From a virus (Duplodnaviria > Caudoviricetes): a stretch of DNA of 64,000 nt. This document shows, piece by piece, positions 15,548 to 21,950 of the stretch (positions are counted from its first letter, which is position 1; each line of letters begins with the position of its first letter). The DNA is taken from IMG/VR virus record IMGVR_UViG_3300025601_000007. The stretch is one strand, 5' to 3'. Under the pieces are notes generated by a model. It was not told the DNA's origin. It saw nothing but the letters and a program-made list of their open reading frames with translations, and did not search any database. The position numbers and the translations under genes were made by a program.

Positions 15548-17194
15548 ATGAGCGAATTGCTAAGAAGTGGTAAGGTTGGAATGACAACATTCAAGAACCT
15601 TGCTGAACAACGCACAGCTATCGTGAAGAACTGGGATGACTCAGGTCTATTGGAAGGTTTGCGTGGTACACAGAAATCGAACGTAGCACAGCTTCTTGAG
15701 AATCAAGCACAGGCGATGCTTAACGAGGTAACACTCGATGCATCAGCTGGTCGTTTCGACACAGTTGCTTTCCCTATCGTAAGAAGGGTATTCTCTCGAC
15801 TACTTGCTAATGAGCTTGTATCTGTACAACCACTCGCACTTCCATCTGGACTACTGTTCTACATGGATGCTAGAGTTTCCTTTAACAATAGTGACAATAC
15901 ATTTAACAATGAAATCGGTAGAACTGCCGAAGTTGCTGGAGCATCTAAAACTGCACCAAAAAACACAGCCAACCAAAACGTAGGGCCTAATTTTGCTGAC
16001 ACTACTGCATACGAACGTTTTTACAACAATCACGGGTTTGACCTTTCCTTTGGAACGGGTGAAACTGTTACAGGTACGTTTCAAATAATTTCAGGTAGTT
16101 CGTTTGTAGGTGGTCTTTCTAATATAACGTTTGCATTGGACACTGGATTCGACGTGTCGAAGCAGCAATCGTCTGCAACATTACGTTATTCATCTACTAC
16201 GGAAATCTATTACTCTGCTGGTTCTTCGAACACGCTTGTAGTAGCAGCTGGTGGCTCAGTACCATTCTTTAGCCAAATTCAAACTTGGACAGAAGACCAG
16301 TACGCTGGAAACAATGCTGATGTGGTCCTTGACCTTCGTCCAGCAGGTGTTTACGGTTCTGACTTCGCAGTTGCCAACTTGAACTCAGGTGGAACTGAAT
16401 TCGGCGCAGCCGTGAGGTTCACCATCACTCCAGCTTACGAAATCTTCAACGACCTAGAGGCGAAAAGTGAGATGGCTGAAATCACAATCCGTTTCTCTTC
16501 TGTTACAGTTGACACTGTTACTAGAAAGTTGAGAGCACACTGGACTCCTGAGCTTGCTCAAGACCTTGAGGCTTACCACTCAATTGATGCAGAAGCTGAG
16601 CTTACAGCTCTTCTTTCTGAGCACGTTGCAGCGGAAATCGACAGAGAAATCATTATCGACCTTATTAACGGTGCGCCGTTTAAAGCTCGTTGGGATTACA
16701 ACGGATTGGCTAACAACGCCAACTTCTTTGGAACACAAAAAGATTGGAATCAAACTCTCATCACTCGTGTAAATGAGCTATCAGCTCAAATTCACAAGGC
16801 GACATTGAGAGGTGGTGCTAACTGGATTGTATGTTCTGCAGAGGCAGGTGCTATTTTCGATGACCTCGAATACTTCCACGTTGACGGTTCTGCTTCACCA
16901 GAAGCTGAAAAGTACAACTTGGGTGTTGAGAAAATCGGTAACTTGGCTAACAGATATGTTGTCTACAAAGACCCATATTTGCCAGCACAAATCGTTCTTC
17001 TAGGACACAAGGGTAACACCTTCTTGGAAGCAGGTTATATCTACGCGCCGTACATCCCTCTTCAATTGACGCAAACAATTTATGACCCGAACGACTTTAC
17101 ACCTCGTAAAGGTATCATGACTCGTTACGCCAAGAAGATGGTTAACAACCGTTTCTACGGAGTCGTATACGTTGACAATATCAACACTTACTAA
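15548..17194 (+). CDS. major capsid protein (T4 gp23-like)
   Basis: LLENQA, IVRRVFSRLLANELVSVQPL..PSGL, TRKLRAHWTPELAQDL, EIDREII, YAPYIPL, PRKGIMTRY. Confidence 0.96.
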   Translation: MSELLRSGKVGMTTFKNLAEQRTAIVKNWDDSGLLEGLRGTQKSNVAQLLENQAQAMLNEVTLDASAGRFDTVAFPIVRRVFSRLLANELVSVQPLALPSGLLFYMDARVSFNNSDNTFNNEIGRTAEVAGASKTAPKNTANQNVGPNFADTTAYERFYNNHGFDLSFGTGETVTGTFQIISGSSFVGGLSNITFALDTGFDVSKQQSSATLRYSSTTEIYYSAGSSNTLVVAAGGSVPFFSQIQTWTEDQYAGNNADVVLDLRPAGVYGSDFAVANLNSGGTEFGAAVRFTITPAYEIFNDLEAKSEMAEITIRFSSVTVDTVTRKLRAHWTPELAQDLEAYHSIDAEAELTALLSEHVAAEIDREIIIDLINGAPFKARWDYNGLANNANFFGTQKDWNQTLITRVNELSAQIHKATLRGGANWIVCSAEAGAIFDDLEYFHVDGSASPEAEKYNLGVEKIGNLANRYVVYKDPYLPAQIVLLGHKGNTFLEAGYIYAPYIPLQLTQTIYDPNDFTPRKGIMTRYAKKMVNNRFYGVVYVDNINTY

Positions 17195-17266: not shown

Positions 17267-17668
17267 TTAAGCCTGTTCGTAATATCCTTCGATTTGTCTT
17301 TTTGCTCCTGCTCCAGCTGTGAAGTCATGCGTGTCTTGGAATACTCCGTCAACACATGCAACCAAATGGTCTGTTGCCAAGGCTGCAATTGTTCTTTTTG
17401 GCATTAATTCATTCTGTGGTGGCACTGGACGACGCATATTTGTCCATTTCCATCCATGCTCAGCCATATACTTATCGAGTACGTGGAACTGAACTCCACT
17501 ACCCTCATGCTTGGGGTCATCATCCAAGCTTAGTTTAAGCAGAACATCATGAACTTTTTGGTATGGCTCCTTAGTAACAATAGCTACAGCTCGATAAACA
17601 CAAGCTCCATCTGTGGGTTCGAAGCCAGCCTCGACTCGACCTCCATCATTTTGATTCCATTTCATCAT
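17267..17668 (-). CDS. hypothetical protein, possible papain-like/C39-type cysteine peptidase fold
   Basis: NDGGR...GACVYRAVA...DHLVACVDG gives a Cys/His pair spaced as in small phage C39-like proteins (recall, not searched). Confidence 0.55.
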   Translation of the reverse strand: MMKWNQNDGGRVEAGFEPTDGACVYRAVAIVTKEPYQKVHDVLLKLSLDDDPKHEGSGVQFHVLDKYMAEHGWKWTNMRRPVPPQNELMPKRTIAALATDHLVACVDGVFQDTHDFTAGAGAKRQIEGYYEQA

Positions 17669-17741: not shown

Positions 17742-17807
17742 TCAAGTTACATTTTGTTGTGTTGTCGTTTTTAGTCTCATATCAATTTTTGTTGTCTTTA
17801 GTCTCAT
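17742..17807 (-). pseudogene. truncated 12th array unit (MRLKTTKIDMRLKTTTQQNVT*)
   Basis: Two consecutive ATGAGACTAAA starts, then homology is lost. Confidence 0.7.
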
Positions 17808-18067
17808 GCCAATATAAGTCTTATTGTAGTCCAATCCCATTCAATCCAGGGGACAGGCCTAGCGGTCCCCTTGTGGATTTCAACGAACCAATCCCCAGGG
17901 AATCCATCAGGAAACCACACTTCATAAACCTCACCTGGCCTGTTTTGAAGACGCAACGCTACCAAATATGGGTACCGCTTCGTGGGTTCAAACCCACCAC
18001 GAATCAATGCGTCTTTGCATGCATCACTTGCATTACATGCATCTGTTTGTGCTGTTTTCAGTCTCAT
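17804..18067 (-). CDS. array unit 11, 87 aa, unknown function
   Basis: Paralog; ATGA overlap with neighbours. Confidence 0.85.
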   Translation of the reverse strand: MRLKTAQTDACNASDACKDALIRGGFEPTKRYPYLVALRLQNRPGEVYEVWFPDGFPGDWFVEIHKGTARPVPWIEWDWTTIRLILA

Positions 18068-18324
18068 ACCAAACTAAATATTATTGTATTGGTCCAATCC
18101 CAAGAAACAAAGCTGATGGTTTTGGGGCCAACAACGGTCCCTTTGTCGATTCGAACGAATCTATCCCCAAGGTATCCATAAGAATGGAAGTGCGCTCCAT
18201 AAACCACTTCACCTGGCTTATTTTGAAGCCGCAACTGCCACGGGCTGATAGTTTTAAACCCACCACGAATCAATTGTTCTTTGCATGCCTCTGTTGATGT
18301 CGTTTTTGCCGTTTTCAGTCTCAT
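18064..18324 (-). CDS. array unit 10, 86 aa
   Basis: Paralog; ATGA overlap. Confidence 0.85.
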   Translation of the reverse strand: MRLKTAKTTSTEACKEQLIRGGFKTISPWQLRLQNKPGEVVYGAHFHSYGYLGDRFVRIDKGTVVGPKTISFVSWDWTNTIIFSLV

Positions 18325-18584
18325 ACAAATATAAGTGTTATAGGATTAGAAGAATCCCATTCAATAAAGCCACGATGGTCTTTAGAGGCAAGCGTAACTA
18401 AAGACCCTTTATGGATTCGAACGAACCAATCACTGCGGTATCCATCAGGAGAGAGCCACACTTCATAAGCCTCACCTGACTTTTTTTCACCAAGCCACAA
18501 CCGCCAGAGGTGCCTTATCGAGGCTTCGAACCCACCACGAATCAATGCTTTTTGGCATGCATCTGTTGCTGTTTTTAGTCTCAT
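18321..18584 (-). CDS. array unit 9, 87 aa (start ATG 18584)
   Basis: MRLKT start overlaps the stop of unit 8. Confidence 0.85.
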   Translation of the reverse strand: MRLKTATDACQKALIRGGFEASIRHLWRLWLGEKKSGEAYEVWLSPDGYRSDWFVRIHKGSLVTLASKDHRGFIEWDSSNPITLIFV

Positions 18585-18847
18585 ACCAATATAAGTGTTA
18601 TTACATTGGTCCAATCCCAATCAACCCAACCATCGCTGATTTTGGGGCCAGCAACGGTTTCTTTGCGGATTCGAACGAACCAATCCCTTCGGTCTCCATC
18701 GTGAGGAAACCACACTTGATAAATCACTGGACCTGGCTTTTCTCCACCAAGTTGCAAAACCAAACACTGTGGGTTGTTCGCGTCTTCGAACCCGCCACGA
18801 AGCAATGTCTCTTGGCATGCGTTTGCTGTTGTCGTTTTCAGTCTCAT
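18581..18847 (-). CDS. array unit 8, 88 aa
   Basis: Paralog; ATGA overlap. Confidence 0.85.
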   Translation of the reverse strand: MRLKTTTANACQETLLRGGFEDANNPQCLVLQLGGEKPGPVIYQVWFPHDGDRRDWFVRIRKETVAGPKISDGWVDWDWTNVITLILV

Positions 18848-19122
18848 ATCAATTTAAGCCTTATTTCACTGGTCCAATCCCAATCAACCGAACTGTTGGA
18901 GGCAGGCCCAATGGTCCCTTTGTGGATTCGAAAAAATAAATACCAACGGTATCCATCGCGAGGGAACCACACATCATAAGCCTCACCTGGCTTGTCTCCT
19001 CCAAGACGCAACTCAAAAGCCCGCGAGCTGTACGTCGTGTCTTCGAACCCACCACGAATCAATGCCTCTTGGCATGCATCGCTTGCATCGCATGCATCTT
19101 TTGTTGTCGTTTTCAGTTTCAT
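18844..19122 (-). CDS. array unit 7, 92 aa
   Basis: Paralog; ATGA overlap. Confidence 0.85.
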   Translation of the reverse strand: MKLKTTTKDACDASDACQEALIRGGFEDTTYSSRAFELRLGGDKPGEAYDVWFPRDGYRWYLFFRIHKGTIGPASNSSVDWDWTSEIRLKLI

Positions 19123-19370
19123 ACCAATCTAAGTCTTATTGTACTGGTCCAATCCCAATCAACCCCGCTGATGGTTTTGGAGCCCCCAACGGTCCCCTTG
19201 TAGATTCGAACGAATCCGCTCCTACGGTATCCATCGCCAGGAAACCACGCTTCATAAACCTCACCTGATTTGTTTCCAAGACGCAACCGCCACATGTCCC
19301 CATTGTGTTTTTTGAACCCACGACGAATCAGTGCCTCTTGGCATGCATCTTTTGCCGTTTTTAGTTTCAT
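19119..19370 (-). CDS. array unit 6, 83 aa
   Basis: Paralog; ATGA overlap. Confidence 0.85.
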   Translation of the reverse strand: MKLKTAKDACQEALIRRGFKKHNGDMWRLRLGNKSGEVYEAWFPGDGYRRSGFVRIYKGTVGGSKTISGVDWDWTSTIRLRLV

Positions 19371-19636
19371 ACCAATATTAGGATTATTCTATTGGAAAAA
19401 TCCCAATCACCGTTGTCTTTGTAGCCAACAACAGTCCCTTTGTAGATTCGAACAAATTCACCCTCAAGGTATCCATCATTAGGGAACCACAAATCATAAA
19501 CCTCGCCTGGCTTGTCTCCTCCAAGACGCAACTCAAAAGCCTGCGAGCTGTACGTCGTGGTTTCACACCCACCACGAATCAATGCCTCTTTGCATGCATC
19601 TGTTGCGTCTTTTGTTTGTGCCGTTTTCAGTTTCAT
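19367..19636 (-). CDS. array unit 5, 89 aa
   Basis: Paralog; ATGA overlap. Confidence 0.85.
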   Translation of the reverse strand: MKLKTAQTKDATDACKEALIRGGCETTTYSSQAFELRLGGDKPGEVYDLWFPNDGYLEGEFVRIYKGTVVGYKDNGDWDFSNRIILILV

Positions 19637-19899
19637 ACCAATCTAAGTATTATTGTGTTGGTCCAATCCCAATTACCCAAACCGTTGGGGGCAGGCCAAA
19701 TGGTCCCTTTGTGGATTGTAACAAACAAATCCCAACGGTATCCATCAGGAGGGAACAACGCTTCACAAACCTCGCCTGGCTTGTCTCCTCCAAGACGCAA
19801 CAGACGCACGCTGTACGTCACGTTTTCAAACCCACCACGAAGCAATACCTCTTTGCATGCGTCTGTTGCGTCTTTTGTTTGTGCCGTTTTCAGTTTCAT
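19633..19899 (-). CDS. array unit 4, 88 aa
   Basis: Paralog; ATGA overlap. Confidence 0.85.
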   Translation of the reverse strand: MKLKTAQTKDATDACKEVLLRGGFENVTYSVRLLRLGGDKPGEVCEALFPPDGYRWDLFVTIHKGTIWPAPNGLGNWDWTNTIILRLV

Positions 19900-20171
19900 A
19901 CCAATCTAAGTATTATTTTGTTGGTCCTATCCCAAAAAACAAAGCCAATGCTGGTTTTGGAGGCAGCGGTCCCTTTGTAAATTCGAACAAATTCACCCTC
20001 AAGGTGTCCATCACAATAGAACCACACATCATAAACCTCGCCTGGCTTGTCTCCTCCAAGATGCAGCCCCTCTGTGCTGTTCGTCATGGTTTCACACCCA
20101 CCACGAATCAGTGCCTCTTTGCATGCATCTGTTGCATCTTTTGCATTTGTTTTTTCTGTTTTTAGTCTCAT
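19896..20171 (-). CDS. array unit 3, 91 aa (start ATG 20171)
   Basis: MRLKT start overlaps the stop of unit 2. Confidence 0.85.
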   Translation of the reverse strand: MRLKTEKTNAKDATDACKEALIRGGCETMTNSTEGLHLGGDKPGEVYDVWFYCDGHLEGEFVRIYKGTAASKTSIGFVFWDRTNKIILRLV

Positions 20172-20410
20172 ACAAATGTAAGTATTATTGTACTGGAAGA
20201 ATCCCAATCACCGTTGTCTTTGTAGCCAACAACAGTCCCTTTGGTGATTCGAACGAACCAATCCCAACGGTATCCACGAGGGAACCACACATCATAAACC
20301 TCACCTGGCTTGTCTCCTCCAAGACTCAACCACTGCGAGCTGTACTTGGTTTTAAACCCACTACGAATCAATTGTTCTTTGCATGCATCTTTTGCCGTTT
20401 TCAGTCTCAT
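20168..20410 (-). CDS. array unit 2, 80 aa
   Basis: Paralog; ATGA overlap. Confidence 0.85.
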   Translation of the reverse strand: MRLKTAKDACKEQLIRSGFKTKYSSQWLSLGGDKPGEVYDVWFPRGYRWDWFVRITKGTVVGYKDNGDWDSSSTIILTFV

Positions 20411-20667
20411 ACCAATCTAAGTTTTATTGTGTTGGTCCAATCCCAATCATACCAACCGATGCTGTTTTTGGGGCCAGCAGTCCCTTTGTCGATTTCAACA
20501 GACCAATCACTGGGGTATCCATCATTAGGGAACCACGCATCATAAACCACTTCACCTGGCTTGTCTCCACCAAGACGCAAAACCTGCGAGCTGTACTTAT
20601 CGTCTTTGAACCCACGACGAAGCAATTGCTTTTTGCATGCATCTGTTTGTGCCGTTTTCAGTTTCAT
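20407..20667 (-). CDS. array unit 1, 86 aa
   Basis: First complete paralog. It is preceded by a DWTNTIILKLV* remnant (20664-20699) and a CGTATATT motif (20724-20731). Confidence 0.85.
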   Translation of the reverse strand: MKLKTAQTDACKKQLLRRGFKDDKYSSQVLRLGGDKPGEVVYDAWFPNDGYPSDWSVEIDKGTAGPKNSIGWYDWDWTNTIKLRLV

Positions 20668-20753
20668 ACCAATTTAAGTATTATTGTATTGGTCCAATCC
20701 AAACATCGCTGTGTTTATGAAAAAATATACGTTAATTTTCAATAAGGGTTACA

Positions 20754-21950
20754 TTAGTAACTAACGGGAAAAGGAATCACATCGTGAATCTTCTCCGCTT
20801 TCGTCAAGAACATAACCAGGCGCTCAAATCCCATTCCGAACCCAGCATGTGGAACCGTCCCCCATTTACGAGTGTCTAGATACCATTGCATAGATTTTGA
20901 ATCCACGCCAGCTTCTTCCATTTGAGTTTTTAGCGTATCGTGGTCCTCTTCTCGAACAGAGCCTCCAATCAACTCTCCAACTTCTGGGAACACCAGGTCA
21001 AAACAAATTGCCTTTCCACCTTCTCTCTTCATATAAAATGGTTTGAGGTCCTGTGGCCAGTGAGTGATAAACACAGGGCCTTTGTGGTGCGCAACTATTT
21101 CACGCTCTAGTTCAGTTCCTACATCTTCTCCATATGACAAACCAAACTCATCACATACTTCTTGATATGTTATTCGAGAATACCTGGCACCAACCTCAGA
21201 TTTAAGTGATTCCAAGGTTACTCCCAACTCTTTTTGATGGCCACTTTTACCAAGTGAAACAGCCACTTTGGCAATTGTCATTCTCAGCATAGACTCGGCA
21301 AAATCCATTATTTGCTCTAAGTCATAATGAGCCAGCTCAGGTTCAATCATCCAGAACTCAGACAAATGCTTTCTGGTTGATGATTTTTCAGCTCGAAAAC
21401 ATGGACCAAAAGTGTAGATTTTCCCCAACGCCATCATACCAACTTCTCCATGAAGCTGACCCGAAACCGTTAAATGTCGTTTGAGCCATTCTGATTCGGC
21501 TGAAAACTGTTCTCCAGCACCCTCACAATCTGAGCTGGTCATAATCGGTGTGTGATATTGAGATACTGACTCCTCATGCATAAACGAGTGTAATGCAAAG
21601 CTTGTTTCGCTTCGTGCGTGCATAATAGCGCACATGCGTCGGTCTCGCCCTCGTGTCTGAGGAATCGTTCTAAGAAAGCTTGAAGAGTGAAATTTAGGCT
21701 GAACTGGGTAATCTTCTCCAGACTCGCCAAGAACCTCAATTGAAGTTGCTTTGAATTCATAATCTCCCCTGGGGGTTCTCCCATCTTCACCCTGCATTTG
21801 AATAGACGCTCCAGCAGATAACCCTAGGGAGACTTCGCAGTCTGAGTGTTTTATTGTTACTTGAAATTCCTCTTGCCCGTCCGTGACGGCTAAGAATGTT
21901 AATGCTTTGGATTTACGCACGGAACGAATCCATCCTTGTCTTGTTTTCAT
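20754..21950 (-). CDS. asnS: asparaginyl-tRNA synthetase
   Basis: OB-fold start GWIRSVR, HTPI.TSSDCEGAGEQF, LTVSGQLH, FGPCFRAE.S.TRKHLSEFWMIEPE, ELIGGSVRE, PHAGFGMGFER. Confidence 0.93.
   Translation of the reverse strand: MKTRQGWIRSVRKSKALTFLAVTDGQEEFQVTIKHSDCEVSLGLSAGASIQMQGEDGRTPRGDYEFKATSIEVLGESGEDYPVQPKFHSSSFLRTIPQTRGRDRRMCAIMHARSETSFALHSFMHEESVSQYHTPIMTSSDCEGAGEQFSAESEWLKRHLTVSGQLHGEVGMMALGKIYTFGPCFRAEKSSTRKHLSEFWMIEPELAHYDLEQIMDFAESMLRMTIAKVAVSLGKSGHQKELGVTLESLKSEVGARYSRITYQEVCDEFGLSYGEDVGTELEREIVAHHKGPVFITHWPQDLKPFYMKREGGKAICFDLVFPEVGELIGGSVREEDHDTLKTQMEEAGVDSKSMQWYLDTRKWGTVPHAGFGMGFERLVMFLTKAEKIHDVIPFPVSY

Follow-up and report, generated by a model that had tools for sequence, protein, structure and literature searches.

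Tandem gene families whose members recombine with one another are familiar from bacteria, parasites and poxviruses, and to our knowledge they have rarely been documented gene by gene in phages. One such family is the lpl cluster of tandem lipoprotein-like paralogs in Staphylococcus aureus (Tsuru and Kobayashi 2008, PMC2568036). In T-even phages, the gp38 adhesins have conserved glycine-rich motifs with hypervariable segments lying between them (Trojet et al. 2011, PMC3157838), and recombination that takes place between conserved motifs exchanges the specificity of the adhesin, according to the title of an earlier report (Tetart et al. 1998, cited in PMC3157838). Poxvirus gene arrays or 'genomic accordions', as at K3L, have been described with rapid homogenization named in the title (Sasani et al. 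2018, PMC6115191), and T4-type phages possess hyperplastic regions and a modular shuffling that is mediated by PeSLs (Arbiol et al. 2010, PMC2839356; Comeau et al. 2014, PMC4122927). Here we analyzed an array of 11 tandem genes of 80-92 amino acids in a 64,000-nt stretch of DNA (the window) from IMGVR_UViG_3300025601_000007, a 92-kb IMG/VR virus record (Duplodnaviria; Caudoviricetes) with an estimated completeness of ~29%. We found that the array units are mosaics of one another, which very probably arose by general homologous (homeologous) recombination among the units. Processes of this kind have been described before; new in detail are the gene family, the phage setting, the ATGA-coupled architecture and the turnover between near-isogenic genomes.

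The whole array occupies 17804..20667 on the minus strand, between a tRNA synthetase gene and a capsid gene, and an ATGA stop/start overlap joins every gene to the next; ATGA likewise stands at the end of all unit occurrences in related loci (209 of 209). Pairwise nucleotide identity among the 11 window units is 66-86%, and no 12th copy was found anywhere in the 92-kb record. The units share the pattern M[KR]LKT...DAC.E.LIRGGF...L.LGGDKPGEVY.VWFP.DGY..DWFVRI.KGT...DWDW..I.L.LV, in which conserved anchors alternate with variable stretches, and are arranged as follows:

20407..20667, minus strand: unit 1, 86 amino acids, with a GEVVY insertion
20168..20410, minus strand: unit 2, 80 amino acids, sharing the V3 tract of unit 5
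19896..20171, minus strand: unit 3, 91 amino acids, backbone partner of unit 5
19633..19899, minus strand: unit 4, 88 amino acids, its 5' 36 nt the same as in unit 5
19367..19636, minus strand: unit 5, 89 amino acids, the clearest mosaic (unit 4-like head, unit 3-like body, unit 7-like V1 patch, unit 2-like V3)
19119..19370, minus strand: unit 6, 83 amino acids, with the hybrid allele a13 in its place in other genomes
18844..19122, minus strand: unit 7, 92 amino acids, sharing the V1 tract of unit 5
18581..18847, minus strand: unit 8, 88 amino acids, in every arrangement that reaches this position
18321..18584, minus strand: unit 9, 87 amino acids, with a population variant (a16) that differs by 2 residues
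18064..18324, minus strand: unit 10, 86 amino acids, with a GEVVY insertion
17804..18067, minus strand: unit 11, 87 amino acids, the last complete unit

A preliminary description of this array had noticed that unit 5 shares each of three variable modules, V1, V2 and V3, with a different unit. The unit numbers that it used (units 2, 3, 5 and 7) correspond to real minus-strand genes, and all three tracts were recovered: V1 with unit 7 (19506-19559 against 18986-19039, 53/54 nt), V2 with unit 3 (19446-19478 against 19981-20013, 32/33 nt) and V3 with unit 2 (19399-19442 against 20200-20243, 44/44 nt). Two further resemblances that it had listed also hold, namely HKGTI.PA.N in units 4 and 7, which are 93% identical in nucleotides over alignment columns 199-228, and GEVVY in units 1 and 10, where GGTGAAGTGGTTTATG is the same in both at the nucleotide level. 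When the comparison of partners was restricted to sites variable among the 11 units, unit 5 agreed with unit 7 at 40/41 sites of V1 (other units 10-29; p = 1e-7), with unit 3 at 20/21 sites of V2 (other units 9-15; p = 1e-3) and with unit 2 at 49/49 sites of V3 (other units 14-33; p = 8e-10), these hypergeometric p values being post hoc. Along the alignment, unit 5 falls into five blocks with four nearest partners: unit 4 in columns 1-42 (36/36), unit 3 in columns 43-84 (41/42), unit 7 in columns 85-138 (52/54), unit 3 again in columns 172-203 (30/32) and unit 2 in columns 204-264 (45/46), with the remaining compared units scoring far below the best partner in each block. The unit 7-like patch thus has unit 3-like sequence on either side, as short-patch conversion or a double crossover would leave it, and no exchange partner of unit 5 lies more than three units away.

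The history of the units is not a single one, as a single history is rejected by tests of four kinds. The pairwise homoplasy index (PHI) test on the 11 window units gave z=-8.5 with a window of 5 informative sites, and 0 of 2000 permutations were as low. In a GENECONV-style run-length permutation, global p values were <0.0005 for units 2 and 5, 0.0005 for units 4 and 5, and 0.017 for both the unit 5-unit 7 and unit 3-unit 5 pairs, and the mosaic cost under a copying model was 638, compared with 731 +/- 10.7 in codon-shuffled alignments. Separate trees for four contiguous partitions reached a log-likelihood of -1778.7 against -1855.9 +/- 11.8 for random partitions of equal size (0/100). Rate differences could inflate this partition test, and the approximately unbiased (AU) tests were therefore made with branch lengths re-fitted; each of the four segments was compared with the maximum-likelihood trees of the other three, and 12 of 12 cross-comparisons reject (p 1e-9 to 0.043). 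The sister of unit 5 changes along the four segments from unit 3 to unit 7, back to unit 3 and then to unit 2. Separate trees for the segments, which the preliminary description had suggested building, are therefore incongruent by the AU tests. The Hudson-Kaplan Rm (25 for the 11 units) was set aside because recurrent mutation inflates Rm at 25-30% divergence.

An explanation with no exchange at all would have to invoke convergent selection or uneven divergence after serial duplication, and constraint on the protein does account for the conservation of the anchors. However, the identity of the shared tracts extends to synonymous sites and shared indels (44/44 nt, 49/49 variable sites), the segment trees reject each other even with re-fitted branch lengths, and hybrid alleles between genome variants exist. 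We find this explanation scarcely tenable.

The array is repetitive, and several contigs terminate inside it, so that shared tracts might be suspected of being chimeras assembled from collapsed similar repeats. No exact repeat in the array exceeds 56 nt; the one of this length (19862-19917 and 19599-19654) crosses a gene boundary and consists of the end of one unit and the first 38 nt of the next, and the exact identity runs in the three tracts described above are 36-44 nt. Illumina reads are much longer than this, and the final MEGAHIT k (141) also exceeds these lengths. The ENA contigs carry k141 in their names, which we take to be the final k-mer of MEGAHIT; with a word size that far exceeds the repeat length, each junction was assembled above the length of the repeats. 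The exact protein of unit 5 is indexed in 40 collection blocks and was read on 24 contigs, which come from JGI and ENA assemblies of different samples and always show the same array context, and Logan pieces from four salt-lake runs have 99-100% identity to the window. Weighing on the other side, the Logan contigs (k=31) fragment at the shared tracts and so do not bridge the junctions. With repeats of at most 56 nt and independent JGI and MEGAHIT k141 assemblies, chimeric assembly, which the preliminary description had named as a possible source of the tracts, is very unlikely, and we give it practically no weight.

Related contigs carry 41 distinct DNA alleles of the units (a01 to a41) in 16 distinct arrangements, some of them incomplete, and arrays that are bounded at both sides hold 10, 11 or 13 units. 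The arrangements that bear on the argument, and the array leader, in which one of the rearrangements has its junction, are the following:

Variant A (the window): a01-a11, 11 units
Variant C (L019): a17 a12 followed by a01-a11, 13 units
Variant B (L018): a17 a12 a18 a14 a15 a07 a08 a16 a10 a11, 10 units
Variant A' (L011): as variant A, with a13 replacing a06
Variant D (L025): a 3.4-kb contig wholly within an array, with 12 complete and 2 cut units and further alleles
20668..20753, minus strand: array leader, 3' of the synthetase gene, its last ~33 nt (20668-20700) being the remnant of a unit 3' end

Variants B and C are 99.9% identical in one flank (7.7 kb) and 99.8% in the other (6.4 kb), and in the interior B has 3 units (795 nt) at the place of 6 units (1545 nt) in C. 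Variants A and C differ by two units lost or gained, with the junction in AATAATACTTAAA, a sequence common to the unit-end remnant of the leader and to a true unit end; the remnant is thus the crossover site for the loss or gain of the two extra units. Allele a13 is an exact hybrid, with 119 nt exactly matching a06 on the 5' side and 141 nt exactly matching a15 on the 3' side. The part from unit 6 covers columns 1-155 and the part from a15 columns 136-303, with an overlap of ~20 nt (columns 136-155) shared by both. Like the leader crossover, this junction lies in a conserved stretch. Alleles a12 and a19 have their first 56 nt and last 83 nt in common and differ in the middle, and the same middle recurs in another unit with other ends. 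Units 7-11 are present in every arrangement that reaches them, barring near-identical variants (a27 for a07 and a16 for a09), and the dynamic part of the array is its synthetase-proximal half.

Several alleles show changes of other types. In contig L029, allele a38 (71 amino acids) has an in-frame deletion of V2, and 13 residues are inserted in a40, the inserted sequence looking by eye like a unit read in another frame; protein P0001 (123 amino acids) contains an internal duplication of ~34 residues. Alleles a25 (L025), a30 (L028) and a41 (L030) are identical save for their last ~12 codons; the downstream neighbors of a25 and a30 differ, and that of a41 is cut off by the end of the contig. By analogy with the lpl cluster of S. 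aureus, the 3' end of a unit may travel with the next unit. We also found an 11-unit array (a29 a21 a22 a23 a28 a24 a30-a34) in L028:1-7815 (ENA contig k141_5612, 53 kb), and the genes beyond it are without counterpart in the 92-kb record; the family therefore also occurs either in another genomic setting or in another, related phage.

Replication template switching (copy-choice or slipped misalignment) between neighboring repeats, rather than recombinase-mediated strand exchange, would suit the short distances between unit 5 and its partners, and the in-frame deletion in a38, the internal duplication in P0001 and the insertion in a40 are types of change typical of misalignment. Sequence data cannot separate this process from recombination as such. 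Allele a13, however, joins alleles of two array variants at the same position, which requires exchange between two genomes and not slippage within one, and we regard template switching as unlikely to be the main source of the mosaics.

Programmed diversification could also reassort V1-V3, whether by a diversity-generating retroelement, by a shufflon-type site-specific recombinase or by conversion from silent cassettes to an expression site. The alternation of conserved anchors with variable stretches and the fast turnover of array content between near-isogenic genomes are in keeping with such a system, whose enzyme could be encoded elsewhere given the low completeness of the record. The search for a recombinase or reverse transcriptase that the preliminary description had recommended nevertheless came back empty, with no match to RVT_1 in the 92-kb record (~29% complete) and no recombinase gene within ~8 kb on either side of the array. 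Adenine is not favored among the mismatches (A takes part in 55% of them, G in 53%, C in 47% and T in 46%), and indels are common. All units are in direct orientation, and a start codon, an intact frame and the ATGA junction are present in 11 of 11 units and 41 of 41 alleles, leaving no asymmetry between silent donors and an expression site. The switch points are heterogeneous, with one of them inside V1, and the variants of the modules are mostly unique. Nothing points to a dedicated diversification mechanism, which we consider decidedly improbable.

General homologous recombination among the units is favored because the 92-kb record has no match to a reverse transcriptase, the array shows neither an adenine bias nor silent cassettes, and its neighborhood has no recombinase gene; T4-type phages are known for this kind of recombination. 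Against it weigh two points: no match to RecA/UvsX, UvsY, SbcC-like proteins or endonuclease VII was found in the 92-kb record (~29% complete), and the direction and timing of single exchanges cannot be inferred from the data. The preliminary description had attributed the pattern to recombination or gene conversion and not to simple serial duplication, and in this it is backed by the incongruent segment trees, the hybrid unit, the block replacements and the changes in unit number. Its more specific model, in which three modules are combinatorially reassorted at the anchors, stands only as far as exchange among units is concerned. There are at least four variable stretches, as an indel-rich N-terminal stretch exists besides V1-V3. 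At least one switch point lies within V1 and not in an anchor, where unit 5 changes from unit 3-like to unit 7-like between alignment columns 83 and 86. Among the 41 alleles, each module has 23-32 types, most variants are unique with few recurring in other backgrounds, and no complete reciprocal 2x2 combination of modules was seen, which argues for sporadic patch transfer and not for free reassortment of a small set of cassettes. Switch points do fall in or beside conserved stretches, as expected because exchange needs homology and breakpoints can be mapped only to identical runs.

Under general recombination, the short conserved stretches and the conserved junction between the end of one unit and the start of the next would be the substrates, and exchange would occur among units of a single array that have become misaligned as well as between array variants that co-infect a cell. 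Three types of event may be envisaged: short-patch gene conversion, as for the unit 7-like patch in the unit 3-like body of unit 5; unequal crossing-over, which would change the number of units and create hybrid units; and block replacement. Selection would meanwhile keep all copies open while the variable stretches gather amino-acid change.

The frames are open in all alleles (41/41), and the variable columns are spread evenly over the codon positions (76/64/67). The ratio of nonsynonymous to synonymous polymorphism (pN/pS) is 1.25 in variable codons (bootstrap 0.95-1.65) and falls to 0.39 in the conserved ones. Open frames throughout, combined with a ratio close to 1 or higher, fit diversifying selection better than decay; telling against this, the contrast between the two codon classes is partly circular, since codons were classed by amino-acid variability, and the interval of 0.95-1.65 includes 1. 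The isoelectric points (pI) of the units range from 4.8 to 10.2, and the unit surfaces are thus strongly different.

Single units had no match in Pfam or PHROGs, a sequence profile search of the PDB gave no match, and a feature search of the ESM Atlas gave no usable one. A profile of 74 family members searched against 1.84 billion representative proteins recovered no more than 16 clear relatives, and these are all proteins of the same kind. Among the next 12 remote matches, 10 are proteins of 3-7 PepSY repeats (E 3e-8 to 6e-4 for the whole library), and the matching segments, at profile positions ~10-73, fall on their PepSY repeats. Alignment of the family to the PepSY repeats with hhalign gave a probability of 93.6% and E 2e-7 over 62 columns, and the joint alignment looks sound. 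The likeness to PepSY (PF03413) is a remote profile similarity over nearly the whole domain of ~60 amino acids, with a helix and strands, a conserved G after the helix, a Y-x-V-x-F strand and a G-x-V turn. From these profiles we propose, with moderate confidence, that the units are remote, PepSY-like relatives of this domain. Several results weigh against this assignment. The Pfam model of PepSY matched none of the family members (0/74) even at E up to 10, the PepSY repeats used with hhalign had been picked by the family's own profile, and the link to PepSY is one of sequence profiles only. AlphaFold2 models, which show a helix and four or five strands, are unreliable, with a predicted local distance difference test (pLDDT) score of 48.7 from the 74-sequence alignment and 54.2 from a PepSY-enriched one, and Foldseek searches of the PDB with these low-pLDDT models gave no match with E<=0.001.

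Each unit, its gene coupled in translation to its neighbors, would be a cytoplasmic-looking protein of ~85 amino acids in which a helix and a beta-sheet core are joined by a C-terminal strand that is conserved. In the joint alignment the anchors appear to correspond to the PepSY core (the helix end, the Y-x-V-x-F strand and the G-x-V turn) and the variable stretches to connecting and edge segments. The units differ from PF03413 proteins in being phage-encoded, single-domain and, by inspection of their N-termini, without a signal peptide, and they add a conserved N-terminal MKLKT and a C-terminal DWDW...IILRLV extension. As to their role, our leading but tentative guess is that the proteins form a set of binders or inhibitors directed at the host; a role as internal proteins packaged in the virion is a weaker candidate, for which the sole hint is the neighborhood of head genes. 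It is possible, if somewhat doubtful, that the array is a phage repertoire of PepSY-like binders or inhibitors in which recombination and diversifying selection keep supplying new combinations of surfaces against a host target that varies, for example proteases or proteins of defence. Two other candidates were dropped: a T4-style capsid-targeting or protease-cleavage function of the MKLKT N-terminus, as inspection found no L/I-x-E motif, and DNA mimicry, given a unit pI of 4.8 to 10.2.

The record has a T4-type head module with a gp23-type major capsid gene and a gp13-like gene, and an S77 prohead protease gene was found in loci related to the window. The features that adjoin the array in the window are:

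20754..21950, minus strand: class II Asn/Asp-type (asnS-like) tRNA synthetase gene (tRNA-synt_2, E 2e-63), upstream of the array and on the same strand
17742..17807, minus strand: remnant beyond unit 11, a frame of 21 codons in which two MRLKT unit starts stand, both truncated
17267-17668, minus strand: gene of 133 amino acids just past the array, its sole match phrog_3754 (unknown function, E 7e-7), retained in all array variants seen
15548..17194, plus strand: T4 gp23-type major capsid protein gene (Gp23 match, E 8e-75), convergent with the array

Unit fragments bound the array at both edges (20668-20706 and 17742-17807), and the leader contains an upstream open reading frame of 10 codons (20674-20706, minus strand; MFGLDQYNNT). 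The gene adjoining the capsid gene varies among contigs, with 461, 457 or 415 amino acids in the L012, L013 and L018 variants. The S77 prohead protease is a single product of 605 amino acids with a faint LAGLIDADG signal in some contigs and is split into 468 and 131 amino acids in L018. All records carrying array units originate from salt-lake metagenomes, and identical units are also found on contigs of up to 447 kb, which suggests that the window is part of a huge T4-like phage genome. The array had no DNA or protein match in a phage GenBank collection, and a pattern scan of IMG/VR confirmed no relatives.

The many natural variants with near-identical flanks and different arrays make the process traceable at nucleotide resolution, and they offer a natural setting in which to measure, for homeologous recombination in an uncultured T4-like phage, how long the tracts are, how much homology is required and how fast turnover proceeds. 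The locus also draws attention to a PepSY-like family of ~85 amino acids that lacks annotation, found only in this phage group and in up to 14 or more copies per genome, whose pattern of variation suggests direct contact with a changing host component. Should the proteins turn out to bind or inhibit host targets, the array would amount to a compact natural library of variants on one small scaffold.

Of the systems introduced at the outset, the lpl cluster, the gp38 adhesins and the poxvirus arrays come nearest. The lpl cluster shares with the array its tandem paralogs, conserved nucleotide stretches in every open reading frame that serve, or here would serve, as sites of homologous recombination, and shared blocks that cross the boundaries of the reading frames, as does the 56-nt repeat at 19599-19654 and 19862-19917. 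In both, the variable regions of one reading frame are incongruent and strains or genomes differ by rearrangement and copy number, in the array with junctions in conserved stretches. The array differs in its phage genome, its far smaller genes, the ATGA overlap in place of an intergenic region, an unrelated protein family and several conserved stretches per gene, compared with one central region in lpl. Poxvirus K3L and the array alike belong to large DNA viruses in which recombination drives change in the copy number of a small gene and array copies exchange sequence. However, poxvirus arrays homogenize, going by the title of the report, and we did not find the near-identical, homogenizing copies of an accordion: at 66-86% identity, the phage units are old and have been kept different. 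A further difference is that the target of K3L is known. With the PeSL systems the array has in common that small genes without known function form a variable block amid conserved T4-type core genes, and short conserved sequences at gene borders as crossover points; PeSLs are promoter/terminator cassettes between unrelated genes, whereas the homology in the array lies in paralogous coding sequence and the ATGA junction. The gp38 adhesins are the nearest precedent for the anchor model of the preliminary description, as they too belong to T4-type phages and alternate conserved core-forming motifs with hypervariable segments. A gp38 adhesin, in contrast, is a single-copy virion protein that is exchanged between phages, whereas the array has 10 to 14 or more paralogs that also exchange with one another. 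If the binder repertoire is real, the turnover of arrays in near-isogenic genomes would be the trace of an ongoing arms race, and the array would stand as the viral equivalent of antigen or immune-receptor gene families that recombine, achieved by ordinary recombination without a special enzyme.

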